Source: an archaeon (GTDB taxonomy: Archaea; Nanobdellota; Nanobdellia; Woesearchaeales; GW2011-AR9). Taken from it: a stretch of 64,000 nucleotides of DNA. The notes beneath the pieces are model-generated. The model did no database searches and was not told where the DNA came from. It saw only the letters and a program-made list of their open reading frames with translations. The first letter of the stretch is position 1. Each line of letters opens with the position of its first letter. Position numbers and translations under genes: made by a program. The stretch spans positions 8,303-72,302 of the forward strand of contig JBDRMB010000029.1 of assembly GCA_043812455.1 (NCBI GenBank). Direction: 5' to 3'. Below are positions 7,606 to 43,853 of this stretch, piece after piece.

Positions 7606-8529
7606 ATGACCAAAATATCGCTGATTGGTGCTGGTAACCTGGGAGCATCAATTGCATACGAAATTGCTACTAGAAACCTCGCAGATGAACTTGTTCTTGT
7701 AGATATTGCTAAAGAATTGTGTTGCGGTCAAGCAATGGACATTCAACAAGCCCTGCCGTTTAAGAACAAGACCAAAGTTTATGATGGAGATTATCCAAAC
7801 ATAGCAAATTCTGACATTATTGTAATTACTGCCGGCAAACCAAGAACACCAGACATGACAGACAGACTACAATTAGCTAAAATTAACATCAAAATCATGA
7901 ATAGTGTGTTAGAACAAATCAAACACCACTCCCCTAACTCAATTATTATTACAATTAGTAACCCATTAGATATTATCAATCATCACATTCACAAGTTTGG
8001 ATTTGACCGGCACAAAGTTATTGGTTCTAGTTCACAATTAGATTCTGCGCGGTTCAGAACTGTACTGGGCCATCCTGACAAAAAAGTTGAAGCTTATGTT
8101 ATTGGCGAACATGGTAATGATCAAGTTCCAGTATTCAGTAAAGTTAAGATTAACGGAGAACTAAAACAATTTACAGATGAAGAAAAACAATCTCTCAAAG
8201 AACAATTAAAATATTCTTCTCTTTGTGTGATTGAAAAGAAAGGTTGTACAGTTTTTGCTCCTACTTCAAACACAGTAGATTTAGTGGAAGCTATTGTTAA
8301 AGATCAAAACAAACTGGTAGTATGCTCAACAAACTTAGAAAATGATTACTATTGCAGTGACGTTTCTTTAGGAGTTCCAGTTATCTTAAACAAAAATGGA
8401 ATAAAAGAAGTTGTGGAATGGGACCTAAGCGCAGAAGAATTAGAACAGTTCAGGGCAGCCGCCAAAAAACTACAAGATTTCTATCAAGAACTTACAGAAT
8501 CAGTAGAAGTAGCACCAATACACGAGTGA
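7606..8529 (+). CDS. mdh: malate/L-lactate dehydrogenase (LDH/MDH family)
   Basis: The N-terminal Rossmann motif is KISLIGAGNLGASIAYEIA. The substrate and catalytic region IVITAGKPRTPDMTDRLQL and the His-bearing segment IGEHGNDQVPVF are present. Confidence 0.85.
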   Translation: MTKISLIGAGNLGASIAYEIATRNLADELVLVDIAKELCCGQAMDIQQALPFKNKTKVYDGDYPNIANSDIIVITAGKPRTPDMTDRLQLAKINIKIMNSVLEQIKHHSPNSIIITISNPLDIINHHIHKFGFDRHKVIGSSSQLDSARFRTVLGHPDKKVEAYVIGEHGNDQVPVFSKVKINGELKQFTDEEKQSLKEQLKYSSLCVIEKKGCTVFAPTSNTVDLVEAIVKDQNKLVVCSTNLENDYYCSDVSLGVPVILNKNGIKEVVEWDLSAEELEQFRAAAKKLQDFYQELTESVEVAPIHE

Positions 8530-8543
8530 TATATAGATTAACA

Positions 8544-8590
8544 TATTGGTTGCGGGAGGTGTTGCTCCTTACGGGAGGGCACCGCACTCG
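8544..8590. repeat. GC-rich structured element, copy a (GCGGGAGG..TGCTCCTTACGGGAGGGCACCGC), flanked by 7-nt direct repeats ATTAACA
   Basis: The local GC is far above the roughly one-third GC of its surroundings. ATTAACA occurs at 8537-8543 and again at 8591-8597. The core shares TGCTCCYTACGGGA with copies at 11686-11723 and 43603-43699. Confidence 0.35.
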
Positions 8591-8662
8591 ATTAACACTT
8601 AGAAAAAGCGAGTCCGCGCTACTCTCTAAGCAAATCATAACCAAAGATATTTAAACATCTAA

Positions 8663-9695: not shown

Positions 9696-11582
9696 TCATT
9701 CAAAAAATATTCTTTTTATTCCTTTTAATTTTAATAACCTATTAACAAGAACTTCAATAAGTTCCATTTCTTTAGGTACAATTACAAAAGAACATTCAGA
9801 ATCTTGACCAAGAAGTTTAGCTTTCGCTTCCCGGACTTCAAACTTAGCATTGACAATGGTATGCAACAAGTCTGCTAATAATCCTGACCGGTTTCCTGCA
9901 ACTACATAAAATTTGAAATTTTTGCTAAGAGTATCTTTCCAACTTACTTTGACCCATCGTTCTTCCTCTTTTTCAATTTGCTCACACTCTTTTTTATGTA
10001 CAGAAATCAATCTTCTTTTAGTAACCAAACCTACAATTTCATCACAAGGAACAGGATAACAACATCTCGCTAGAACACAAGAGGCCTGCTTAAATTCGGG
10101 GGAATATACCAAAGTTTCGTACTCTTCCATAACTTGTGGTTTTAAGATCCGATAATGTAATGCTGGTAATTTTTGATATTTCTTCACACCTTTCCTGATT
10201 TTTTGTTTAGCTCTAGATGAGATCACAAATTTAAGCCAGTTACGTCTTGGCAACTGTTTCTTAGAAGTTAAGACTTCAATAACATCCCCTTTTTTTAATT
10301 GAGTACGTAACGGAACAAACTTACCATTTACATTAGCTCCGACAGTACGATTACCTACTTCTTCATGTACAATGTACGCAAAATCTAATACCGTTGCTCC
10401 CAACGGCAAGTATTTAACGTCACCTTTAGGGGTATAACAATAAATCTGATCATTGAAAACGTCAATCTTAACATTTTCCAGAAATTCCCTTGCACTGGCA
10501 TCTTTTTGAAGGCTGAGGATATCCTTCATCCACTCCATTCGTTTCTCAAAATCAAAATCAGATTTCAGACCTTTATATCTCCAGTGTGCAGCCAAACCTT
10601 CTTCTGCAATATCATCCATTTCTTTAGTTCTGATCTGTACTTCTAAGAACTTGTTACCTTTCCATTTCAGTGCAGTATGGATTGACTGATAACCGTTAGG
10701 TTTTGGATGAGAGATGTAATCTTTTAATCTTCCTTCAATCGGTTCAAAATTTTCGTGCAGAAAACCAAGTACTGCATAACAATCATTTATTGTTTTTACA
10801 ACTACTCTTATCCCTAAAAAATCATAAATGTCCTGTAACCGTTTTCCTTTCTTGACAACTTTTTTGTAAATACTGTAAATATGTTTAGACCTTCCTTTGA
10901 CGTCAATAAATTCAACATTTTTCAAGGATTTAATCTTATCAATAGCTTCATTAACATCATCATCTCGTTCTTCTCGTGAAGTTTCTAAAAAATCAGCAAT
11001 CTCTTGAAATTTTTTTCGATTGATTGCTTTGAAAGCCAGATCTTCCAGCTCAGTCCTGATTCTTTCCATCCCTAGACGATAAGCTAACGGAGCATAAATG
11101 TCAAGAACTTCTTGAGAAATTCTGATTTGTTCATCTTTAGGTAAGGCATCAATATCTCTTTGATTATCTAACTTATCAGCAAGTTTAATGAAAATAACTC
11201 GGACATCGTTCACTGTTGCCAAAAGCACTTTTCTAATCGTTTCTGCAGTAAGTTTAATGTTTCTTTTCCTGATGGTAGTTATTTCATCCACACCTTTAAC
11301 TAAAGAAAGAACATCCTGACCAAACTTTTCTTTAATTTCCTGATCGGTTTTATACTTACTTGTCCCATGTATGATTGCTGCCAAGATAAGTTCAGGAGCA
11401 GCACCATTTTCTGCTAATATTTTCGCTACGCGCAAACTATGATCAAAATAATCATCTCCAGCCAATCTTTTTTTATCGCTTAAGATTTCTCTAGCAAAAA
11501 TAATTCCTTCTTCAAACTTAGTGATATCTTTATCGGAATAATCTTTTGTGTCCAGAAATCGAAAGAATGATTGAATATCCAT
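9696..11582 (-). CDS. bifunctional (p)ppGpp synthetase/hydrolase, RelA/SpoT homologue
   Basis: 628 aa. The HD hydrolase region is HSLRVAKILA. The synthetase motifs are DFLGIRVVVKTINDCYAVLGFLH and DYISHPKPNGYQSIHTAL. A TGS-like region (VYSPKGDVKYLPLGATVLDFAY) follows. Confidence 0.85.
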   Translation of the reverse strand: MDIQSFFRFLDTKDYSDKDITKFEEGIIFAREILSDKKRLAGDDYFDHSLRVAKILAENGAAPELILAAIIHGTSKYKTDQEIKEKFGQDVLSLVKGVDEITTIRKRNIKLTAETIRKVLLATVNDVRVIFIKLADKLDNQRDIDALPKDEQIRISQEVLDIYAPLAYRLGMERIRTELEDLAFKAINRKKFQEIADFLETSREERDDDVNEAIDKIKSLKNVEFIDVKGRSKHIYSIYKKVVKKGKRLQDIYDFLGIRVVVKTINDCYAVLGFLHENFEPIEGRLKDYISHPKPNGYQSIHTALKWKGNKFLEVQIRTKEMDDIAEEGLAAHWRYKGLKSDFDFEKRMEWMKDILSLQKDASAREFLENVKIDVFNDQIYCYTPKGDVKYLPLGATVLDFAYIVHEEVGNRTVGANVNGKFVPLRTQLKKGDVIEVLTSKKQLPRRNWLKFVISSRAKQKIRKGVKKYQKLPALHYRILKPQVMEEYETLVYSPEFKQASCVLARCCYPVPCDEIVGLVTKRRLISVHKKECEQIEKEEERWVKVSWKDTLSKNFKFYVVAGNRSGLLADLLHTIVNAKFEVREAKAKLLGQDSECSFVIVPKEMELIEVLVNRLLKLKGIKRIFFE

Positions 11583-11631
11583 AACAAGAGTTATTGGCTT
11601 AGATAATAAAAAACTTTCTCAAAGTGTGGGT

Positions 11632-11785
11632 GTGTTCCAAGAGTCCACCAGCATCAGTCAAAATGCCTTCCAATTAAACATTAAGTGCGTCGCGAGGGGA
11701 TGCTCCCTACGGGAACGCAGCACAAACAACTTAAGAAGTAAGCATTTTGAAGCTGGTGGTCGAGCGCCAGCGAGATTTGGAACAC
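11632..11785. ncRNA. candidate structured RNA containing GC-rich element copy b; long-range helices GUGUUCCAA/UUGGAACAC and CCACCAGC/GCUGGUGG enclose the core GUGCGUCGCGAGGGGAUGCUCCCUACGGGAACGCAGCAC
   Basis: A perfect 9-bp complement pairs 11632-11640 with 11777-11785. A perfect 8-bp complement pairs 11645-11652 with 11752-11759. The GC-rich hairpin core lies at 11686-11723, in a divergent intergenic region. Strand and identity are unknown. Confidence 0.35.
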
Positions 11786-11880
11786 ATCCGTTAAGTGCGA
11801 AAGTTTTAAATACAATTTACCTAAAGAACTACTTCAAAGTGGGAACTTATAAGTTAAAATTAAGAAATCAGCAAGAAGGT

Positions 11881-12522
11881 ATGTTCAAAGCAGTAATTAA
11901 ATCTATTATTGATGATGTCACTCACAATTATGTTAGAGGAATGCCTTTAGAGTTACTTCCAGAAGGAAGGCTAACTTACGTACCCCAATCTCCAGCGATG
12001 ATAGAAATTACCGGTGCTGAAAGTTCAGGAACATTATCTTTAAACGTAACTCATCGGAATTATCATAATGCCTATGAAGAATTAAGATGGGTAAAAGATC
12101 TTGTCATTGATGACATTGTAACTTTGTTTGAAAAGATAGAAGAGTTTGATGGTGCTTTAGATTACTTAAATCGTAAACCAGATAATTCAAAAACTTTTGG
12201 TTATGAATTTGATCTTAATAGTTGTCAACTAAGAAGTGCAGCAGAATATTTTGGCGAATTTGACCAACCAGGTTGGCGATGGTCAGAAAATAGAAGATAT
12301 CTCATTGAAGGTGAAAAGTTAGCTGGTCAAATGTCTTTGATCAGACCAGCTTACAAATATTTAGCTATAGTTTTAAGTGAATTAGAATCCCAATTTCGTC
12401 ATCACCAAACAACTACCAGTGATCAAAGAAAAATTGAACCATTCCTAAAGGTTTTACAAAGAATAAAAGATCCAAGAAACAAAGCTAAAACAATCAAAAA
12501 CCTTAGCAGAAGATTAAGTTAA
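11881..12522 (+). CDS. hypothetical protein (start trimmed from ORF-track 11626 to Met at 11881)
   Basis: Upstream of 11881 the ORF-track protein is Arg/Ser-rich and simply reads through the GC-rich structured element. From MFKAVIKSIID onward the composition is ordinary. No known motifs. Confidence 0.4.
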   Translation: MFKAVIKSIIDDVTHNYVRGMPLELLPEGRLTYVPQSPAMIEITGAESSGTLSLNVTHRNYHNAYEELRWVKDLVIDDIVTLFEKIEEFDGALDYLNRKPDNSKTFGYEFDLNSCQLRSAAEYFGEFDQPGWRWSENRRYLIEGEKLAGQMSLIRPAYKYLAIVLSELESQFRHHQTTTSDQRKIEPFLKVLQRIKDPRNKAKTIKNLSRRLS

Positions 12523-12524
12523 AA

Positions 12525-13556
12525 ATGAGACCAATAATTTCCAGATATCTTTCAAGTATTGCATTTATGGCTGCTTTAGCTCTAAGTCCAGGTTGTAATA
12601 AAGGTCCAGACTTTGAAACCAAACCAATAGAAATTATTGCAGATGCTGAAGAACAATTAGAAGATCTTTTACCAACAGAATGCCAAGGACGAACAACTGA
12701 ATACTTGCTTACTGAACAGGTTCTTCTTACTTTAAGAAAAAGTCCAAGAATAAGTGCAACCAAAGTTGGAGATGTTGAAAGATTTGATACATTAGAATTA
12801 TGTTCCAATGAGGAAAAGGAAGGTTGGCACGTCATCAGGAAAAATGGTACTGAAGGTTGGGCAGAGTTTGCTTTAGATGATATAGTCTTAAGTGAATGTC
12901 AAGGCCAAGATATATACATTGTTTCAAACAGTGCAAGAAATGGAATCACAATTTACGATAAAGCATATGGTAGTAAAGTATTAACCTATTTTAATCCTAG
13001 AGAAGTTTTCACTGCATGTGATAATATCACAGGTGGCGGAAGAAGAATGATAAAATTAAAAAGTGGGTCTATAGCATGGGCAAATATTGAACCAGGTTCA
13101 ATAATTGAGAAAGGTAAATTTGATAGAAGAATAGCTAATAACGTACTGATACCAAATCATGTTCGATTATATGAAAATAGTGAATCAAAAATCAGAACAT
13201 TCAAATTCTGCCAAACGAACAATATTGAGTGTGGTTATGATGACGGGTTTAATGTTGGAGATACTGTTTATTTTCAATTTAATTTTTTAGCTGATACTCC
13301 AGGAAGAAGAGTAGACTTAACTAAAAATTATAGAGTAATTAATCCTGAAGGAGAAATTATACGCGATTTTTCATCACAAGGTAAAATATATCAATTTCTT
13401 AGCCAGGATGATAATCATGGTTTTTCTAATATTCTAGTTGGTGGTAATAATTTTACATTAAGTTCTGACAGTATCCCGGGAACATATTTTTTAGTGGTTA
13501 CAATTAAAGATCACAATAATAAATATTATTTTCAAGAAGCTTTTGTTGTAAAATAA
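12525..13556 (+). CDS. secreted lipoprotein (lipobox ALALSPGC), member of a three-copy family with a C-terminal beta-sandwich-like module
   Basis: The N-terminus is MRPIISRYLSSIAFMAALALSPGCNK. It is a paralogue of the 50912..52351 protein (IEIIADAEEQLEDLLPTECQG versus IEIIEDAEKQLEEVRPLDCSN). The C-terminal module FKFC..C..GD.V.F.F...NYR.I.P.GE....PGTY.L.V also occurs in 18079..18651. Confidence 0.55.
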   Translation: MRPIISRYLSSIAFMAALALSPGCNKGPDFETKPIEIIADAEEQLEDLLPTECQGRTTEYLLTEQVLLTLRKSPRISATKVGDVERFDTLELCSNEEKEGWHVIRKNGTEGWAEFALDDIVLSECQGQDIYIVSNSARNGITIYDKAYGSKVLTYFNPREVFTACDNITGGGRRMIKLKSGSIAWANIEPGSIIEKGKFDRRIANNVLIPNHVRLYENSESKIRTFKFCQTNNIECGYDDGFNVGDTVYFQFNFLADTPGRRVDLTKNYRVINPEGEIIRDFSSQGKIYQFLSQDDNHGFSNILVGGNNFTLSSDSIPGTYFLVVTIKDHNNKYYFQEAFVVK

Positions 13557-13557
13557 T

Positions 13558-14949
13558 CTATTCATAATATTCACTTTTCTTGATTACCCAATTAACATAT
13601 TCTGCTTTGATAACTTTACCATCATTATTAACATCAAGATCACTATTCTTGCTATAAGCATCAGAACCTCGAGAAAATAAAACATAATCATCATTTTCTC
13701 CAACAGCATTTGGCCAGATTACTGCCATAGCAACATCACCTAAATCCTGCCCATCAAAGTTTGGATGGTGTTCTTTGATATCAACATAATATTTTTTAAC
13801 ATATTCTAACTGTTGAATTGCTGTCATACCTGATAAGATGCTAGTCGTTGTATCTAGGCCTTTAGCTGTACTTTCAACAAACTGAATTAAACCAACAGCA
13901 CTACTTCCGGGATTTTTTGCTGTCGGACTGAAAGTTCCTCCTGTTTCAAATTTCATTACTGCCAATAAATGTACAGGATTAATGTCAAGCTCTCCACAGA
14001 TTTCATTCAATTTGTCAATAAACCCAAGTTGATTATCAGTTAGATTATTCATATCTTCTTCCAATGTTCCGGAGTATACATTAACTTCAGAACTTAACAC
14101 TACAACATCTTCTGTTTTGCCAGTATAAATATTTTCAAAAGATTTCCAAGTAGATCTTACTGGATCCCAAACGGTATCTTCAGTCCCAATTATATTTGCT
14201 ACAGAAAGCCAGACCCTATCAAGTTCTTGACAAGTTTCCTGATTTTTACAATTTTCCTGTCCGGCAGATATTGTTGCACCAGCGATTTTGTTAACATCCC
14301 TATCAGCAGCAGTATTCCCACTTCTCTGCACTGAAGATTCTAACTTATCTCCAGTAGTGGTTTCTGGTGTTTCACTTGAAGTTATTTGTTCAGTTTCAGT
14401 ATAACCAAGACAAGGTGTTTCAGTTAAACTAAATGGATGGTACCCTTCTCCAACATAAAACTCATAGTCAGGAACTTCATAAACTGCAAATACCTTACTC
14501 TTATAGGTATTTTCTGTTTGTGCCGCAGGTTCAGATTCTACAAAACCTTCATTAAGATAAGAAAAATCAGCAATAAAACCGGTATTACCTAATTCTAAAC
14601 ATATTTCTGCTAACTGTTCTGTTGAAAATTCAGAATCCATTGGATAAATTATAGTATTATCAAGAAACTCACTACAATCATAATAGTTCCCATAAAGATA
14701 ATATTTGCCTACTTCTTGGCCTGCAACTTCTAAAAGTACATAATTATAATACCAACCAGAGCCATCTTCTTCATTAATTACCATTAAATATTTGCCATTT
14801 TCTACATGTTTAAAACAACCATTATCAGCCACACCATTCAGATCGTCATCAGTATAAAGAGTATCACTATAACTCAGAACCAGCATCGGAATAACTAGTA
14901 AAGAAAAAAGAACCATGGCCGACTTTCTGTTAATTTTGTTAAATTTCAT
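13558..14949 (-). CDS. secreted protein with C-terminal lytic-transglycosylase (SLT/GH23-like) domain
   Basis: There is an N-terminal signal or TM segment (AMVLFSLLVIPMLVLSYS). The C-terminal LAVMKFETGGTFSPTAKNPGSSAVGLIQFVESTA matches the SLT pattern E-[ST]..F.....N..G.AxGLMQ...T. It shares a CKxQ(E/D)TC(Q/E)ELD(R/K)VW module with the neighbouring gene. Confidence 0.6.
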   Translation of the reverse strand: MKFNKINRKSAMVLFSLLVIPMLVLSYSDTLYTDDDLNGVADNGCFKHVENGKYLMVINEEDGSGWYYNYVLLEVAGQEVGKYYLYGNYYDCSEFLDNTIIYPMDSEFSTEQLAEICLELGNTGFIADFSYLNEGFVESEPAAQTENTYKSKVFAVYEVPDYEFYVGEGYHPFSLTETPCLGYTETEQITSSETPETTTGDKLESSVQRSGNTAADRDVNKIAGATISAGQENCKNQETCQELDRVWLSVANIIGTEDTVWDPVRSTWKSFENIYTGKTEDVVVLSSEVNVYSGTLEEDMNNLTDNQLGFIDKLNEICGELDINPVHLLAVMKFETGGTFSPTAKNPGSSAVGLIQFVESTAKGLDTTTSILSGMTAIQQLEYVKKYYVDIKEHHPNFDGQDLGDVAMAVIWPNAVGENDDYVLFSRGSDAYSKNSDLDVNNDGKVIKAEYVNWVIKKSEYYE

Positions 14950-26484: not shown

Positions 26485-27837
26485 TTACTTAATTTTCCTA
26501 ACCTTAAATCCTTCCTTTTGATCATCAACAGAATAACCTTTCTTGGTCAGTTCATCCCTTAATTTGTCTGAAGTTGCCCAATCTTTAGTTTGCCTAGCTT
26601 TTTCCCGTTCTTTTGCAAGTTTCAGAATTTCAGCAGGAATCTTTTCTTCCTTAACATTTTCAAGACCCAATCCAAACACTTGGTCAAAATAATACAATAA
26701 ACATAACTTCTCGTTATCCTTAACAGTACTGTCTTTAAGCAAGTCCCACATTGTTGCTAAAGCTTGTGGAGTATTCAAATCATCACTAACTTGTTCCAAA
26801 AACAGGTCTTGATATCTTCTAGCTACACCTGAAAATTTTTCAGGATTAAGTTTTCCCTTACCAATTTTAACTTCTTCCTTCAAATCTAAAACTCGCTCAA
26901 CCAACTTTTCTCGAGCAGTTTTAGCGGACTCTAAAGCTTCATAGTCAAACATTAACGGCTTTCGGTAAACTGTTCCTAAGCAGAAATATCTATAATCAAG
27001 TGCAACAAAACCTTTTTCTTTCAAAGTAGATAAAGTGACAAAATTATCACCAGACTTGGCCATCTTTTCTCCTTTCTTCAAAACGAGAAATTCATTATGT
27101 AACCAATATTTAACCCACGGTTTTTTACCAGTTGCAGCTTCTGACTGTGCAATTTCATTTGTATGATGTACAGGAATATGATCAATGCCACCACAATGAA
27201 TGTCAAATTGTTCGCCTAGATATTTCATGCTCATTGCTGAACATTCCAAATGCCAGCCAGGATAACCCATCCCAAACGGAGAATCCCACTTCATTTCTTG
27301 TTCATCAAACTTAGATTTGGTAAACCATAACACAAAATCATAGGGATTTTTCTTGTTTATGTCTTTTTCAACCCTTGCTCTTGCCTTTTCTCCATCTTCT
27401 TCCAGATTCAATCGTGCAAGTTTTCCATAATCTTTCAGTTTAGAAGTATCAAAATAAACATTTCCGCCCGCTTGATAAATGAAACCTTTTTTCTCTAATT
27501 TTTTTATCAGTTCAATCTGTTCCTTGATATGTTCAGTGGCTTTGGGAAATACTTTTGGAAATAAAAGATTCAGTTCCTTAATGTCATTCTTGAAAGCTTT
27601 AGTGTAAAAATCTGCAACTTCCCAAACAGTCTTTTTTTCACGTTCAGCACCTTTCAATAATTTATCTTCTCCAGTGTCAGCATCAGAAGTAAGATGTCCA
27701 ACGTCAGTGATGTTCATGATATGTTCAACTTTAAAACTATTCAACTCCAGAACTCTTCTCAAAACATCTTCAAAGATATAACTACGCAAATTTCCGATAT
27801 GTGCATAATTGTAAACAGCATGCCCAAAATTTCTTAT
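26485..27837 (-). CDS. cysS: cysteine--tRNA ligase, main reading frame (HIGH motif through C-terminus)
   Basis: The HIGH motif is [13 protein letters not shown] and the KMSKS-like motif is KMAKSGDN. It is class I CysRS-like throughout ([19 protein letters not shown]). The frame is closed upstream by TAA at 27840-27838. Confidence 0.8.
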
Positions 27838-27946: not shown

Positions 27947-29089
27947 TCACCCCACTACAAGGTTAATTAATTTGTTTTGTTTTCTGTCTAATGAATATCC
28001 AATGTATTTATAAAATTTTGTGAGGCTACCTTTCCTAGCAATATGTAAATCAAAGCAGAGACTGTATCTTCCAGCATGTGTTCTACTCAAGCGACCTGCA
28101 AAAATTCTGTTTTTAATATCAAGTTCCTTAAGAATTTTGGATTCTCCTTGCAAAAGTTTAGGAGCTTTATTTAACTCACTCAGTAACTTTTTATCTTCAA
28201 TTAGTCCTGATGCTTTCTTGATTGTAATAACCTTGGTTATATGTCCTGTAGGGAATTTGTTAATCAACATAAACTTATCAAGCAGTTCTAATTCTTTTAT
28301 TTGTTTTTTAGTTAAATTATTTAGATGCCTATAACGCGAAAGTGTGATATACCCATAATTTCCTTTCTTATCTTTGTACACTGAAGATTCATCATCAAAC
28401 GCTGCCTTCAAGTAATTCGCTTTCATTTCTTTAGTTCCTTTCTTTATCAACCAAGGTACTTCACCATCAACTGTCGCTTTTCTTCCAGAAATTGCTCCAA
28501 CTCTTAATAAGGACTCACCAATTATAGATGAGCCAATTCTAAGCAGAATACAATTTCTTACAAATTCTTTTTGTATGTGAACCTCGCCAAATAATTTATT
28601 TATTATTTTTATAAAATTCTCTGCAGATTGCTCCTCACCAGCAGCATATTTTGTTCTAAATTTGTTTCTTGCTTTCTTATCTTTGAAAATGCAACCATCA
28701 GAAACAATTAATCCTAAAAGATAAGCACCATCTTCATTGTTGAGGTTTATTGGAAATTTTGGATTTTTTATAGAAATAACTTTCCCTTTTTTAGTCATCA
28801 AGATTTTATCATTCATATAATTATAATTAATCCCTAAGTAATCCAACAATTTCTTAAGTTTCATAACAGAAACCATATTAACACCTTTATTGTTTATCAG
28901 ATTATAAAATGTGGGACTACTCAAGTTCAATTCATTACAAAGCAGAGACAGGTTACCAGCTTTTTTAATTCCTTTTAGGATTAATTTTTCTAGTAGATCA
29001 TCTTTTAGTTCAAATAGAAATGTATCTTTAAGTTGATACCAATGAGTTTCCCAATGAGGGATTGCCAAATCTTCATTAATTGAATTCAT
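27947..29089 (-). CDS. LAGLIDADG-family (double-motif) homing-endonuclease-like protein with N-terminal HTH-like region
   Basis: The two motifs are [14 protein letters not shown] and [14 protein letters not shown] (LAGLIDADG-like), about 100 aa apart. N-terminal [24 protein letters not shown] resembles an HTH. The start is trimmed to ATG 29089, preceded by SD GGAGGT. The stop lies 2 nt before the cysS ATG. Confidence 0.6.
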
Positions 29090-29098
29090 TTTTATTAC

Positions 29099-29128
29099 CT
29101 CCAAGTTTCCACCTACTTAAACTTGGAG
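29099..29128 (-). promoter_or_regulatory. 10-bp perfect inverted repeat (CTCCAAGTTT / AAACTTGGAG) whose 3' arm contains the SD of the LAGLIDADG gene
   Basis: The arms are 29099-29108 and 29119-29128 with a 10-nt loop. The SD GGAGGT (minus strand) lies at 29097-29102. The predicted mRNA hairpin would occlude the ribosome-binding site. Confidence 0.3.
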
Positions 29129-30491: not shown

Positions 30492-31127
30492 TTACAATTC
30501 TAACACTTCAGCTTTATTTAAACTTTCTTCTTGTAAAGTCTTCAGGTCTAGCTTTTTTAATTCCAGTTCAATATTCTCTTGCTTAGATCTAGTTGCAGGG
30601 TGTTTCGGTCCGAGCAAACAACAGATTTCTGGTCCTTTCGAAATTTCATAAGTTTCAATTTCTTTGGCAATTTCAATGATTTCTTGTTTGTCGTAAGTCA
30701 AAAGTGGCCGGAGAATTTCTAAGCTTAGTTGGCTGCTGATAACTTCAAGATTACTCAATGTCTGGCTGCTTACTTGCGCAAGATTTTCTCCTGTGATCAA
30801 AAATTTAGCGCCTTCTTTTTCAGCGACCATCTCTGCTGCTTGGAACATGGCAATCTTTTGCAAGATGAAATAATTCTTATGCTGACACTTATTTACTAAT
30901 TCTTTAAGCACATTAGCAAAAGGCACTAAATAAACTTTTTTAACGCCAAGCTTCTTAACCAGCTCTTTTACTTTGTCTAACTCTTTCTCATCGGTCAACG
31001 GCACTTGATGGAAATGCACTGCAATGATGTCTAATTTTTCTTTCATTAGGTACCCTGCAACTACTGAATCAAATCCCCCTGACAAGAGTAATATGGCTTT
31101 TTTCATCTTTTTATTGGAATCCTCCAT
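30492..31127 (-). CDS. PP-loop ATP pyrophosphatase, ThiI-like (tRNA 4-thiouridine synthase catalytic domain only, no THUMP)
   Basis: KKAILLLSGGFDSVVAGYLM is the SGGxDS PP-loop. IAVHFHQVPL resembles the ThiI HF motif. At 211 aa it is much shorter than full-length ThiI. Confidence 0.55.
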   Translation of the reverse strand: MEDSNKKMKKAILLLSGGFDSVVAGYLMKEKLDIIAVHFHQVPLTDEKELDKVKELVKKLGVKKVYLVPFANVLKELVNKCQHKNYFILQKIAMFQAAEMVAEKEGAKFLITGENLAQVSSQTLSNLEVISSQLSLEILRPLLTYDKQEIIEIAKEIETYEISKGPEICCLLGPKHPATRSKQENIELELKKLDLKTLQEESLNKAEVLEL

Positions 31128-32524
31128 TTTTGAACTTGACTATTAATTTTATATTTATAGACTTTGCCCGATTTATAACGTTCCAAAACATCACAGCTTA
31201 ACAAAAATTCTAAATATTTGTATAGAGTCGAATATCCAACTTCGGTTTCTCTGGAGATTTTAGATTTGAGCTCATAAAGAGTCTTGTCTTTACAATTAAA
31301 CAACATTAAAAAATCACCGAGCTTTACACTCATGCTTGAGTGTGAGAAACGATTTAAATAATCAGTTGCTACTACTAGAGATGCCGGTTTGTAAGAATAG
31401 TTTCTAGTTAATAATTCATATTTTGTAGTCCCAGGAAAAAATAAAAAAGATAAATCCTTATTACTTTTTTTCCTTACTTTTATTGTGTAACATCCTTTTT
31501 TGTCAACTTTTTTAGAACAATTGGAAATAATTTTCTTTTTATTAAAATAATTAGCTAAATCTACTGACATTAATTTACTTTTAGTTTGTAAATTTATGTT
31601 TCCATCTAATTCCACTGAACCATCAAATTGCAAAAAACCCCTGACAAATGCATCATTAAAAATTAATGAAGAAGTTTTAATAATTGAAGGGATACTTACA
31701 GAATTAGATTTTGCTCCGTGATTAAAGCCTAAGAATTTTATTAAATGGCGAATAATTATCTTATTTCCTATTGTAAGGTGCCAAGCTCCTACTTCTTTAA
31801 ACTTTTGAGGAGAATAAACAATTTCAAAGCAATTATTAAATTGTTTTGCTAATTTCTCCAAAGGTAATTTTGAACCTTCAACTATCCTTAAGAAATAACT
31901 TACTTTAATTCTCTCAAAGCACCCATAATCTTTTACTATTGGAAGTAATTTAGCAATTGAATCTTCATTAGAACAAAATGTAAAATAACAGTGTTTTATA
32001 GAAGAATCATAACAAACATTTACTTTCCTACCAAATTTCTTATTTACATCATCAATTAAACTAAGTTCTGGTTTAGTCTTAAAAATGATATTAATTCTCA
32101 ATGGAAGCGTGCCATCAGCAGCATGAGCTCCCGCAATTTCACATAAGGGGATAGTTAATTGCTTCAAAGCCTTAACTTTTTGTGAAGTCGAGCCTGCAGT
32201 CTTGAGTAACTTTATATTAGAATTAATCTCTTTTACAAGTTTACTTTTGCTTTTGGAAGAAATTTTCAGCAATTCTAAAAATAGAGGTATGGAAAACCAG
32301 CTTTTACGAAAACTTAGATATTTTTCAATTGTATCATACGAACAATTCAACTGTTCTGCGAGATAATTAATTAAATCTTTTTTATATTGATATTTTTGAA
32401 GAATATCTCTTAAAATAAAATTGATAGTTCTCCTAGTCTCATTGTTTAAATCAAAACAAATCCATGAAAAAGGTCTTACATCTATCCTTTCATCGTGAAG
32501 TTCTAATAAATTGAATTTTTTCAT
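31103..32524 (-). CDS. LAGLIDADG-family (double-motif) protein with N-terminal HTH-like region, second copy
   Basis: The two motifs are CEIAGAHAADGTL and FVRGFLQFDGSVELDG. The N-terminal DLINYLAEQLNCSYDTIEKYL is HTH-like. 473 aa. Confidence 0.5.
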   Translation of the reverse strand: MKKFNLLELHDERIDVRPFSWICFDLNNETRRTINFILRDILQKYQYKKDLINYLAEQLNCSYDTIEKYLSFRKSWFSIPLFLELLKISSKSKSKLVKEINSNIKLLKTAGSTSQKVKALKQLTIPLCEIAGAHAADGTLPLRINIIFKTKPELSLIDDVNKKFGRKVNVCYDSSIKHCYFTFCSNEDSIAKLLPIVKDYGCFERIKVSYFLRIVEGSKLPLEKLAKQFNNCFEIVYSPQKFKEVGAWHLTIGNKIIIRHLIKFLGFNHGAKSNSVSIPSIIKTSSLIFNDAFVRGFLQFDGSVELDGNINLQTKSKLMSVDLANYFNKKKIISNCSKKVDKKGCYTIKVRKKSNKDLSFLFFPGTTKYELLTRNYSYKPASLVVATDYLNRFSHSSMSVKLGDFLMLFNCKDKTLYELKSKISRETEVGYSTLYKYLEFLLSCDVLERYKSGKVYKYKINSQVQKWRIPIKR

Positions 32525-32802: not shown

Positions 32803-34797
32803 TTGATTAATACCTTCACAAAAATGAGAAAAATTATCCTTTTGTTAATAATTATTAGCTTAATACTAGTTAGCACAGCAGTTGCAGAAAATCTTTACTT
32901 TTATGATAGTTTAGACATCAGCTTAGATGTTAACGGGCAACTATCTCTTTACGAAGCAGGAAATAATCCAGAGGTCAGTGAACTTACCACTACATTATTA
33001 CTCTATCCCGAAGAAGATTACCGACAAGAACTGTTAAGTTTCCAATCTAGTGGTGAAGTTGAAGAAAACAAAGTTGTTTTCTATTGGAAAGACCCTACCC
33101 TTGGCGAGAAGGATTATTCTTTCCAATCATTAGTAAGAACTACCTATCACCGCAACCAGATCAGCGAAAAAATATTTTTTCCAACAGAATTTACTGAACA
33201 AGAAATTGAAGAAGAACAGCTTTATTTATATTTAGAAGATTCTGAAATTATTGATTGGAATGAACCAAGTATTATTGCTCAAGCTAATGAACTTACTGCA
33301 GATAGTGACGATTATTTTGAAGTAGTTTTTTTACTGGCCTCTTGGGTAGAAGAAAACATTGAATATGATTTGAACTCATTGACTGCTAAATCCAGCCAAA
33401 AATCAAGTTGGGTATTAGAAAACAAAGAAGGGGTATGTGACGAAATGACTTCTTTATTCATCTCCATGTGTCGATCACAAGGAATTCCCGCTAGGTTTGT
33501 AACTGGAGTATCTTATACTAACTCACCATTATTTGCTGAACCTTGGCAAGCCCACGGTTGGGCAGAAGTTTATTTTCCTAATCATGGTTGGGTCAGTTTT
33601 GATCCTACGTTTGGGGAATATGGTTATATTGATTCCACTCATGTTAAACTTAAAGATGATGCTGATCCTAGTGAAGCTTCTACACTTTACGAATGGACTG
33701 CCCATAACGTTAATATTGTCAGCAAAGAACTTGACTTTGATGTTGATGTTGTTGGTTATGGAGATCAGATAGATAAAGAATTTTCATTAGAAATGTCAAG
33801 TTTGGGAGAAGAATTGGCCTTTGGCAGTTATAATTTGATTACAGCAATAATCAAAAATGAAAAGGAATATTATTCAGCAAGCACATTGACATTAACCGTG
33901 CCAGAAGAAATTCAAATTATTAATAATAAAAAACAAACAGTATTATTAGAACCTAAAGAAGTACAAGAATTATACTGGATTATCAAGATTCCTCAAAACC
34001 TAAATGAAGGATATCGATATGAATTTCCTTATACAATCTCCACTGAAAAGAATTTAAGTATTGAAGATTCTTTCTTCTCACAGAAAAGTGCAGTATCTTA
34101 CACTAAATCTGAAGTAGAAGATCTTATTCCAGAAGATCTTGACGAGAATAGTTACTCCAGGGTGCTTGTTTTATCTTGTGAATACCAAGAAGAAGTTCAA
34201 GTTAACCAAGATAATATAATTTCTTGTTCGTTAAAGAATTCAGGAGATACCAAACTCGAAAATCTTAATTTTTGTATTGCAAATGAATGTTTAAATATTG
34301 ATCAATTGCCAATTAGTAAAGAATATAGTTATGAAGTTGAATTAAGTTCATTAGAAGCTGGCTGGAAAACTGTCTTTGTCTCAGCAAAAAATGATCTGGT
34401 TCAAAAAGGCCAATACTTAACCTACCAAGTCTTAGATCAAGCTTCATTAGAATTTTCTTACTCAGTTTCAGAGAATATTCATTATGGCGAAGAATTCTTA
34501 ATTACAATCTCTTTGATTCCGGATTCATTTACAATACCACAAAACCTTACTATGACAATAACTTTGCCAGGGAAGATTAACACTTGGGAAATTAGTGAAC
34601 TTACCCAGCAACAAGACATTATTTTAGAGATTAATAGTCTGGGACTTGGCTCTGAAAACTATTTACCATTAGAACTTGCTTGGCAGGATGAACAAGGTAA
34701 TGAATTTAGTTATTATGAAGAAATTTTAGTTGAGATTGAAAGCAATACTTTTTGGGACAAAGTAGTCATGTTTTTTAACACACTAACCAGTTTTTAG
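32803..34797 (+). CDS. secreted transglutaminase-like cysteine protease superfamily protein
   Basis: The signal peptide is MRKIILLLIIISLILVSTAVA. The Cys-His-Asp triad context is EGVCDEMTSLFISMCRSQGIPARFV ... HGWAEVYFPNHGWVSFDPT. A long C-terminal beta-rich region follows. Confidence 0.65.
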   Translation: MINTFTKMRKIILLLIIISLILVSTAVAENLYFYDSLDISLDVNGQLSLYEAGNNPEVSELTTTLLLYPEEDYRQELLSFQSSGEVEENKVVFYWKDPTLGEKDYSFQSLVRTTYHRNQISEKIFFPTEFTEQEIEEEQLYLYLEDSEIIDWNEPSIIAQANELTADSDDYFEVVFLLASWVEENIEYDLNSLTAKSSQKSSWVLENKEGVCDEMTSLFISMCRSQGIPARFVTGVSYTNSPLFAEPWQAHGWAEVYFPNHGWVSFDPTFGEYGYIDSTHVKLKDDADPSEASTLYEWTAHNVNIVSKELDFDVDVVGYGDQIDKEFSLEMSSLGEELAFGSYNLITAIIKNEKEYYSASTLTLTVPEEIQIINNKKQTVLLEPKEVQELYWIIKIPQNLNEGYRYEFPYTISTEKNLSIEDSFFSQKSAVSYTKSEVEDLIPEDLDENSYSRVLVLSCEYQEEVQVNQDNIISCSLKNSGDTKLENLNFCIANECLNIDQLPISKEYSYEVELSSLEAGWKTVFVSAKNDLVQKGQYLTYQVLDQASLEFSYSVSENIHYGEEFLITISLIPDSFTIPQNLTMTITLPGKINTWEISELTQQQDIILEINSLGLGSENYLPLELAWQDEQGNEFSYYEEILVEIESNTFWDKVVMFFNTLTSF

Positions 34798-34849: not shown

Positions 34850-35074
34850 TTATTTCTTCTTAGCAGTTTTCTTCTTAGCTACTTTTTTCTTAGCTACTTT
34901 TTTCTTAGCTACTTTTTTCTTAGCTACTTTTTTCTTAGCTACTGCTTTCTTAACTGCTTTCTTTTTAGCAACTTTTCTTTTAACTGCTTTTTTCTTAGCT
35001 ACTGCTTTCTTAGCAACTTTCCTTTTAACAGTCTTTTTCTTAGCTGCCTTCTTCTTCATAACTTTCTTAGCCAT
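34850..35074 (-). CDS. lysine/alanine-rich basic protein (74 aa) built of KKxVAKK repeats; histone-H1/Hc1-like nucleoid protein candidate
   Basis: The whole translation is low-complexity K/A/V and is encoded by 15-nt tandem repeats. Confidence 0.5.
   Translation of the reverse strand: MAKKVMKKKAAKKKTVKRKVAKKAVAKKKAVKRKVAKKKAVKKAVAKKKVAKKKVAKKKVAKKKVAKKKTAKKK
34876..34950. repeat. tandem repeat, 15-nt unit TAGCTACTTTTTTCT x about 5 (coding for KKVAK units on minus strand)
   Basis: Read directly from the sequence: four exact copies plus one variant (TAGCTACTGCTTTCT). Confidence 0.75.
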
Positions 35075-43491: not shown

Positions 43492-43602
43492 CTTCAAGGT
43501 AAAATAAGTACTCTCTGATATATAAATATTGCTTTTCTTGAGGCACCGTAGAATTGCTTTTTGCATCCAAAGGTCAAAACTTTTTCTATAAACATAATCA
43601 GG

Positions 43603-43699
43603 CTCGTCGCGAGGGGTTGCCCCATACATGAAAATCAAAAACTATTGATTTTCAGTACTGAAATTAAGTAGTTTCTTAATTTCATGTACGGGAACGCAG
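43603..43699. repeat. GC-rich structured element, copy c, interrupted by a 62-nt AT-rich insertion (43628-43689) bounded by a 9-bp inverted repeat TACATGAAA/TTTCATGTA and containing three internal hairpins
   Basis: The core halves CTCGTCGCGAGGGGTTGCCCCATAC and GGGAACGCAG are collinear with copy b at 11686-11720. The insert has hairpins AATCAA-aaacta-TTGATT, TTCAG-ta-CTGAA and ATTAAG-tagttt-CTTAAT inside a closing stem, giving a cloverleaf-like fold. Confidence 0.35.
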
Positions 43700-43853
43700 A
43701 TCTATTGATAAAATATTGAAAGTTTTGAAGATGCATTTAGCAATTCTACAGAGCCTTTTCTTTAGAAGAGCTAAAAAGTTAGCATCCTGAGGTCACAAAA
43801 CAAGAAAAATTAAATAAAGCAACAGATAAACTAACTATAAGCACAAACCAAAA

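Follow-up and report, generated by a model that had tools for sequence, protein, structure and literature searches.

A hairpin-shaped element next to relA/spoT in a DPANN archaeon is probably an old copy of a MITE family with a conserved apical core

The window, that is the whole 64-kb stretch of archaeal DNA analysed here, includes among its genes pelota, TrmB and the archaeal-type PheRS alpha subunit, which mark it as archaeal; its RelA protein carries the NCBI label 'Nanoarchaeota archaeon'. Upstream of a relA/spoT gene, which starts at 11582 on the minus strand, lies a hairpin-shaped element of 162 nt, hereafter referred to as element b. On its other side an open reading frame (ORF) of 298 aa has been called from a GTG at 11626, with the gene caller reading through b; since the true start of this ORF is most likely the ATG at 11881, the called start is a read-through of the element, and b is intergenic, both as stated in an earlier note that had described the region as a candidate structured RNA of about 150 nt. 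The features of b and of its flanks, with helices named P1 to P4 from the outside inwards and TIR standing for terminal inverted repeat, are the following.

11619-11627, no strand: left copy of a presumed, decayed 9-bp target-site duplication, TCAAAGTGT (weak evidence alone)
11628-11789, plus strand: element b, probably a complete, single-module, hairpin-shaped copy of a non-autonomous DNA transposon (MITE), 162 nt, defined by the match to covariance model R1 (see below) and the outer inverted repeat
11628-11640, plus strand: left TIR (5' strand of P1a), GGGTGTGTTCCAA, a GG-type end, pairs with 11777-11789
11645-11652, plus strand: 5' strand of P1b, CCACCAGC, pairs with 11752-11759; equals the inner P1 of the family alignment
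11657-11666, plus strand: 5' strand of P2, GTCAAAATGC, preceded by the conserved bulge ATCA, pairs with 11742-11751
11685-11723, plus strand: apical GC-rich module, 39 nt, whose exact match is unique within the window
11685-11688 with 11720-11723, plus strand: P3, GTGC/GCAC
11692-11694 with 11716-11718, plus strand: P4, GCG/CGC
11695-11715, plus strand: core, A-GGGG-ATG-CTCCC-TAC-GGGAA
11742-11751, plus strand: 3' strand of P2, GCATTTTGAA, pairs with 11657-11666
11752-11759, plus strand: 3' strand of P1b, GCTGGTGG, pairs with 11645-11652
11761-11774, plus strand: junction hairpin, optional in the family, C-GA-GC-GCCA-GC-GA-G, containing tandem G·A pairs and placed in a three-way junction with P1a and P1b
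11777-11789, plus strand: right TIR (3' strand of P1a), TTGGAACACATCC, pairs with 11628-11640
11790-11798, no strand: right copy of the presumed, decayed target-site duplication, GTTAAGTGC

The two perfect helices reported earlier are present exactly where they had been placed, one formed by GTGTTCCAA (11632-11640) and its complement TTGGAACAC (11777-11785) and the other by 11645-11652 and 11752-11759, and the GC-rich hairpin described inside them was found at 11685-11723. The outer helix is longer than first reported, with 13 bp including one G·T, and this outer inverted repeat sets the limits of b at 11628-11789. Folded as RNA, the plus strand of b reaches -66.8 kcal/mol (z -5.4) and 0 of 200 shuffles are as good, which bears out the contention that nested helices of this kind exceed chance; the minus strand gives z -3.4. 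Both strands also fold well when treated as DNA (z -6.1 and -5.0).

The region had also been designated as one copy, "b", of a GC-rich element, and in fact the plus strand of the window has three occurrences of the core motif GAGGNGNTGCNCCNTAC (8556, 11694 and 43611) against 0.2 expected by chance. The window holds two copies of one family (b and c) and one related element (a), located as follows.

8497-8632, plus strand: element a, a hairpin element akin to b and c yet distinct from them, having the apical core in common (GAGGTGTTGCTCCTTACGGGAG) and recognised by the core motif
43542-43755, plus strand: element c, a second family copy, 214 nt (R1 72.1 bits; fold z -7.7)

Elements b and c have a common architecture and outer helices of different sequence. 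Element c carries a hairpin of about 60 nt, AT-rich, inserted in the core after TAC, and it is flanked directly at its ends by TTTTCTTGA (43533-43541) and TTTTCTTTA (43756-43764), which are alike at 8 of 9 bases. Element a reaches only 12.4 bits with R1, and elements resembling it were found in loci L066, L093 and L040. Within the window, further copies of the ends of b or c do not occur beyond chance.

Known RNA families were searched across the window with Rfam 15, as the earlier note had recommended, without any match at the gathering score, and relaxing the limit to E<=10 around b and c brought up nothing but noise; ARAGORN found neither tRNA nor tmRNA, in line with the earlier remark that the region does not resemble a tRNA. 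Hammerhead motifs as well as C/D and H/ACA boxes were sought and are absent from b. Rfam searches on ten loci of the other classes bearing the core returned nothing relevant, and an identity of the L018 and L037 classes as RNase P or SRP RNA was rejected, there being only a sequence resemblance with no Rfam support.

The family to which b belongs was defined by scanning a degenerate 23-nt pattern of the core against 185,579 species genomes. The scan gave 93 stretches, nearly all of them from metagenome-assembled genomes (MAGs) of Nanoarchaeota/Woesearchaeota; MAGs labelled 'Methanosarcinales' in one TPA series are, we infer, of the same clade. An alignment of 24 members, all from other genomes (A1), was used for an RNAalifold consensus and, with a hand-assigned structure, for the covariance model R1. 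This model, built on related elements of other genomes only, matches b at 11641-11765 with 96.5 bits (E 3.5e-20), and it has 100 matches of 120-215 nt in the collected loci. About 83 of 97 motif hits represent one family with the consensus CGTY-GYG-AGGGG-WTG-CTCCN-TAC-GGGAA-CRC-AG, the members of which are small, dispersed in many copies and without an ORF of their own. Copy-rich MAGs hold from 5 to 12 loci (12 in DATDSP01, 8 in CAYPXA01 and 7 in JAZDID01); DPANN archaea have very small genomes, yet they tolerate 5-12 or more copies. In several cases a true contig end is about 55 nt away, a position to be expected because repeats break assemblies. Viral contigs gave no match to the core. A census of prokaryotic MITEs includes one Woesearchaeal genome with 105 MITEs per Mb and does not describe the present family (PMC11602168), and a full-text literature search found nothing on it.

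The ends of the elements are those of a transposable element. In 69 of 69 full-length copies with the main-family core, this core lies between two perfectly complementary stretches of 8-16 nt, the sequence of which varies from copy to copy; the pairs span 94-237 nt, and for a few copies it was an inner helix that was matched. Perfect 8/8 flanks were observed in 19 of these 69 copies and 7/8 flanks in 7 more, against 0.5% perfect 8-mers and 3% with 7/8 in mismatched left/right controls. Once the ends are exact, the duplications are perfect in nearly every copy (for example CATCATAT, CATTACTT, CAGGGTGC, TGGAAAAA, CTTTTCTT and CAAGAAAG), and the perfect inverted repeats that bound the members measure 9-16 bp. 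Duplications are 8 bp long where the ends are of the GTA type and 9 bp long where they are of the GG(C) type, and the 9-bp duplications are perfect in GG(C)-type relatives (the DATDSP copies, L026, L055 and L089). The end of b, GGGTGTGTTCCAAG, groups with the elements having 9-bp duplications and not with the GTAA/GTR...CAGCA TIRs that go with 8-bp repeats; compared by eye, its left TIR agrees at 9 of 14 bases with the GGCAGCGTTCAAAA end of the family member L072. The flanks of b itself agree in register at 5 of 9 bases, with the core AAGTG, which is weak on its own; since the match is no better than 5/9, b is probably an old copy, and it is probably immobile now.

We consider it probable, taking copy number, ends and duplications together, that b is an old copy of a MITE belonging to a family specific to DPANN archaea (Nanoarchaeota/Woesearchaeota). 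The earlier note had left the choice between a novel sRNA and a long-hairpin repeat; the repeat has held up, being multi-copy and provided with inverted repeats and duplications, and a stand-alone sRNA is unproven. From the perspective of annotation, candidates for "structured RNA" of about 150 nt in DPANN genomes become recognisable as MITE copies.

A comparison with the closest available relative (RelA 83% identical, P0002, locus L095) is consistent with insertion. The spacer upstream of relA in L095 measures 84 nt, follows the window collinearly as far as 11622, which is six bases short of b, and then runs straight into the orthologue of the window gene at 13558-14949 with no trace of b; the same locus also lacks the two genes next to b (11881-13556), which limits how far the absence of b can be taken as a sign of a separate insertion. 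Element a is likewise absent, the spacer between the malate/lactate dehydrogenase (MDH) and GAPDH genes being 75 nt long in L095 versus at least 161 nt in the window. R1 had no match over 18 kb of three related loci.

For part of the family a transposase can be named. A 22-nt inverted repeat, GTAATACTTCAGnnnTCTGAAG, occurs in four MAGs in composites that consist of one canonical and one divergent module placed head to head and that have perfect or 7/8 duplications of 8 bp, and a metagenome scan for this repeat gave more than 120 loci. The TIR GTAATACTTCAGnnnnCTGAAG bounds elements of 1,564-1,574 bp (L126, L131, L120 and L213), one of which, L131, is flanked by the duplication GCATTTAA. These 1.57-kb elements encode a protein of 447 aa with the domains PF03050 DDE_Tnp_IS66 (E 7.6e-28) and zf-IS66, scoring 213.6 bits against the NCBIfam equivalog for the IS66 transposase (cut-off 180), and homologues of it (62-100% identity) adjoin the 22-nt repeat in at least 17 loci. 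MITEs of 164-167, 266 and 296-299 bp with the same TIR hold one or two modules. Since ends of the GTAATACTTCAG type are thus common to a MITE subfamily and to 1.57-kb insertion sequences of the IS66 family (ISBst12 group), P1 of the GTA-type elements is taken to be an IS66-type TIR. ISDge4, a member of the ISBst12 group, has the TIR GTAACTGCTCAGCA, a transposase of 449 aa and an 8-bp direct repeat (PMC12898284); the stand-alone end GTATGTGCATAGCA agrees with the TIR of ISDge4 at 10 of 14 bases. The GTA-type subfamilies do fit the ends and the 8-bp direct repeats of the ISBst12 group, and the subfamily tied to the ISBst12-like IS66 transposase offers a testable pair of an archaeal MITE and its transposase.

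Element b, on account of its GG-type end and its 9-bp class, was not filed as an IS66 derivative. MITEs of the IS66 family (ISBst12 group) resemble the present elements in their GTA(A/T)...AGCA TIRs, 8-bp duplications, noncoding nature and many copies, whereas b and c belong to the class with GG-type ends and 9-bp duplications, and the interior of the present elements is a conserved, covarying hairpin module, with no remnant of an insertion sequence, that is also found behind other ends. The autonomous IS66-like element contains no copy of the module. A search of the window and of the collected loci found no transposase for the GG-type ends of b and c; the ten unannotated ORFs of the window that were checked include no transposase, and an all-against-all comparison of the ORFs of the 93 loci showed no recurrent one. 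Pairs of inward-facing modules (L094, L053 and L043) were considered as autonomous copies and rejected, as ordinary genes and no transposase lie between them, namely an MNT/HEPN-like pair, membrane proteins, RecJ-like and ribosomal protein S15 genes.

The position of b, about 95 nt upstream of the start codon at 11881 and on the same strand, and the like position of c before the pelota gene, would suit a cis-regulatory RNA (riboswitch, leader or thermometer) of the gene at 11881. Across the family, 88 of 97 insertions are intergenic and their orientation is random, the upstream gene being opposite in 40 and same-strand in 37 cases and the downstream gene same-strand in 43 and opposite in 33. 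The random orientation and the unrelated neighbours of the 88 intergenic copies effectively refute this explanation, copies are also found at the 3' ends of genes and inside a gene, and Rfam gave no match, so that a regulatory role of this kind appears extremely improbable.

Covariation had been proposed in the earlier note as a check for its RNA reading. The helices pass this check: the RNAalifold consensus has double compensatory changes in 24 of 38 pairs, the R1 alignment has changes on both sides in 30 of 34 pairs, and 94.7% of the cells pair, compared with 70.2% after shuffling and 38-45% when the partners are slid. From the outside inwards, the common architecture consists of P1, a bulge of 4-6 nt, P2, variable internal loops, P3 (4 bp), P4 and the apical core; in b, P1 is split into P1a and P1b by the junction hairpin (11761-11774). 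The first pairs of P2 covary across the family (GUC/GAA, GCC/GGA, GUG/CAA and GUA/UAA), and so do P3 and P4, the latter alternating between GCG/CGC and GUG/CAC. RNA as such is not supported in the same way. The covariation of P1 is accounted for by its being a TIR, because TIRs covary for reasons unrelated to RNA. Moreover, over the 52 best-aligned distinct members, the 1,525 cells of P1-P4 comprise 1,469 Watson-Crick pairs, 13 G·U and 13 A·C (0.85% each). In an RNA under selection, G·U is as a rule far better tolerated than A·C, and parity of the two is the pattern of inverted repeats or hairpins of DNA; the helices are therefore read as inverted repeats at the DNA level rather than as evolving RNA, and the random orientation already described points the same way. 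A plain MITE requires nothing but its ends and would not account for the covariation of the inner helices P2-P4.

In one alternative the element would be, or would carry, a functional structured non-coding RNA (for instance the RNA of an L7Ae-type K-turn ribonucleoprotein) that hitch-hikes between transposon ends and has the core as its working part, after the model of the SINEs, which derive from tRNA or 7SL RNA. The strong fold and the compensated changes in 30 of 34 pairs speak for it, together with a core that is nearly invariant, strand-asymmetric and keeps its G·U in 82 of 93 sequences, that recurs behind different closing helices in other hairpin elements, and that belongs to a module missing from the autonomous insertion sequence, as would a cargo and not a relic of its ends. 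Furthermore, the junction hairpin with its tandem G·A pairs would be in keeping with an archaeal RNA-protein complex, and so would GUGAUGA...CUGA, a C/D-like and K-turn-like motif of L018, which is of a related class. Archaeal RNAs with K-turns bound by L7Ae (C/D and H/ACA guides, RNase P RNA) share with the junction hairpin the signature of tandem sheared G·A pairs, but b is without C/D or ACA boxes and without an Rfam match, and its hairpin, made of tandem GA/GA, a 2-bp stem and a loop in a three-way junction, is without the standard C-stem and bulge. This hairpin is also optional in the family: the insert (CGAGCGAAGCGAG, CGAGCGTAAGCGAG and similar) is shared with L013, L017, L026, L089, L091 and others and is missing from many members, c among them. 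GCGAAGC and GCGTAGC are classic ultra-stable mini-hairpins of DNA, and the sequence of the junction hairpin is equally typical of such stable DNA mini-hairpins. When the absence of an Rfam family even at E<=10, the equality of G·U and A·C in P1-P4, the lack of orientation bias with respect to genes, the lack (by inspection) of a conserved promoter-like box at a fixed distance and the copy in frame within a GTPase gene are added, a functional RNA is an unlikely account of the family. A/T-rich boxes that precede the core in b, in c and in the DATDSP copies were considered as an internal archaeal promoter and discarded, being absent elsewhere, for example in L004.

Helices that covary as Watson-Crick pairs without conservation of sequence, the folding of both DNA strands, the stable mini-hairpins of DNA type and the mirror-symmetric purine runs that covary three ways would also be in keeping with a single-stranded DNA site for recombination or replication, attC- or HUH-like, that is known by its fold and is not a substrate of a DDE transposase. 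The attC sites of integrons are imperfect inverted repeats in which the fold is conserved over the sequence and which act as single-stranded DNA, and in both respects, imperfect inverted repeats and a fold kept rather than a sequence, the present elements are like them. However, attC sites stand in cassette arrays beside an integrase and are not known to have TIRs, duplications or an invariant apical core, while the present copies are scattered singly, with duplicated flanks and with no integrase or HUH gene seen alongside. Target duplications of a fixed 8 or 9 bp and TIRs, both shown by the present family, are hallmarks of DDE transposition and not of attC or HUH systems, and one type of end is common to a gene for an IS66-family transposase. 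A single-stranded DNA site in place of a DDE substrate is accordingly very improbable.

The core is the one part of the MITE family that could still reward study. Its 21 nt are almost invariant in about 100 members, and the consensus covers about 25 nt (AGGGG-WUG-CUCCC-UAC-GGGAA). Two mutually exclusive hairpins can form in it, GGGG/CUCC or UCCC/GGGA, and both survive in variants; a G·U under hairpin H1 is conserved in 82 of 93 sequences, and only the core has a conserved G·U. In core variants the 5' purine, the pyrimidine and the 3' purine runs change jointly, from A/U/A to G/C/G in at least six variant types and to GA/CU/AG in two more, the 5' purine run mirroring the 3' run. These joint changes would fit alternative hairpins or a small purine-motif triplex. 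Two further readings were rejected: a small peptide, with GAGGGG-ATG in the core taken for a ribosome-binding site and its start codon, given the zero spacing, the alternation of ATG with TTG and the covarying helix that follows downstream, and an 11-nt GAAA-tetraloop receptor (CCUAAG), given a bulge of variable sequence and the lack of the partner strand UAUGG.

Elements with 8-bp duplications and elements with 9-bp duplications carry this same core at their apex, as do element a, the elements related to it and the classes L018 and L037, and other hairpin elements close it by different helices (GCG/CGC, GGG/CCC and GUGG/CCAC). Its presence on different backbones suggests an exchange of the module between transposons. 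The covariation of P2-P4, together with the near-invariant and strand-asymmetric core, points to a function beyond the binding of a transposase. With rather low probability, the GC-rich apex, which a covarying helix always closes, may be regarded as a self-contained functional module (bistable hairpins or triplex) that has been captured repeatedly by unrelated ends (IS66-type with 8-bp and GG-type with 9-bp duplications) and by other hairpin elements in DPANN archaea; the apex could then bring in a host factor or a transposase factor, or serve as RNA, and the module rather than the ends would be the unit under selection, which, if true, would make it a new kind of MITE cargo.

For the MITE reading of b, the mechanism that we propose is the following. 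The outer helix would be the pair of TIRs bound and cut by a transposase supplied in trans, the staggered cut of the target producing the flanking duplication; as judged from its GG-type end, its 5/9 duplication and the one mismatch in its TIR, b would have been inserted by a transposase that makes 9-bp duplications. P2-P4 and the core would be carried along for helping the elements to spread or persist, possibly by folding, as single-stranded or cruciform DNA, into a hairpin that draws the two ends together or to which a host factor binds. When transcribed through, the element is predicted to form an RNA hairpin as well; a role of the conserved core at the RNA level is unproven. If functional, the core would be a concrete lead as to where the advantage of MITEs comes from, and perhaps also to a motif of structured DNA or RNA confined to these archaea. 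As an analogy for a MITE whose centre is functional, the Correia elements of Neisseria (CREE/NEMIS) come closest; they have a central IHF-binding site and transcripts that form processed hairpins. They too are hairpin MITEs of about 100-160 bp with many intergenic copies and a conserved middle; unlike the present elements, they are bacterial, with TIRs of 26 bp, a TA duplication and no invariant GC-rich apex.

Some copies alter genes. Such an in-frame insertion surfaced in the all-against-all ORF comparison of the 93 loci: in L052 and L063 a Nog1/DRG-like GTPase has the element as an insert of 47 codons, placed between its G2 and G3 motifs, and the homologue of this GTPase in L076 is without the insert. 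An archaeal bulge-helix-bulge intron was considered for the copy within the gene and rejected: in place of a pair of 3-nt bulges separated by 4 bp, the base of P1 in L052 has a single bulge of 6 nt. Rickettsia palindromic elements can reportedly sit in frame in protein genes and be translated. Those short palindromic repeats differ from the present family in having no recognised system of TIRs and duplications or partner transposase, and the present copies are mostly intergenic (88 of 97); the likeness lies in the in-frame GTPase insert and in the end of the MDH gene of the window, whose last 10 codons and stop come from element a. MITE copies of this family thus break assemblies, extend gene calls, as with the 298-aa call at 11626, and alter the ends or the interior of genes, as in MDH and the GTPase.

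Comparison with the locus of the closest available relative (L095, 83% RelA identity) places element b, the MITE copy at window 11628-11789, at the start of an indel of about 1.9 kb. In the window, positions 11881-13556 hold two genes, encoding products of 213 and 343 aa for which no Pfam or NCBIfam match was found; both are missing from the relative, where relA is directly followed by the orthologue of the window gene 13558-14949.

Element a (window 8497-8632) is a hairpin element that differs from b and from the second MITE copy, c, and has the same apical core. The malate/lactate dehydrogenase gene (7606-8529) owes its final 10 codons and its stop codon to this element, which is absent from the 83% relative, whose dehydrogenase is 10 codons shorter at its end. 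A family member was also identified in frame within a Nog1/DRG-like GTPase gene, as an insert of 47 codons between the G2 and G3 motifs that is kept in two MAGs (L052 2622-2750; L063 6200-6328) and is absent from the L076 homologue.

In copy c (43542-43755), an AT-rich double hairpin of about 60 nt (43628-43689) lies in the core directly after TAC, and TAC is present on both of its sides; this double hairpin is possibly a further, very small insertion within the element. Composite MITEs, in which IS66-type ends enclose two head-to-head modules, one canonical and the other closed by an ACA...UGU helix, were found at four loci:

L007 4091-4389, composite MITE
L075 1925-2275, composite MITE
L088 7584-7878, composite MITE
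L022 6609-7025, composite MITE; expanded GC-rich insertion within the core of the second module

At L094 (2400-4270), two inward-facing family members are separated by 1.9 kb containing a nucleotidyltransferase/HEPN-like gene pair, two small ORFs and no transposase; this arrangement may be coincidental or may represent a composite unit that carries cargo.

Two further classes of longer hairpin elements have the same core (GGGAGGGGTTGCTCCCTACGGGAA):

L018 ~2690-2900, with a C/D-box-like GUGAUGA...CUGA motif; also L092, L006, L021
L037, L025 (copies from one and the same MAG) and L087

An Rfam search gave no match for either class, and these elements may represent an RNA gene or another mobile element.

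Other features of the window are:

27950-29104 and 31106-32524, two ORFs with weak LAGLIDADG_3 (homing-endonuclease-like) domain matches, situated between housekeeping genes (CysRS at 26488-27789)
34853-35056, some 11-13 tandem copies (80% matches) of the 15-nt unit TTTTTTCTTAGCTAC, just downstream of ORF 32803-34797
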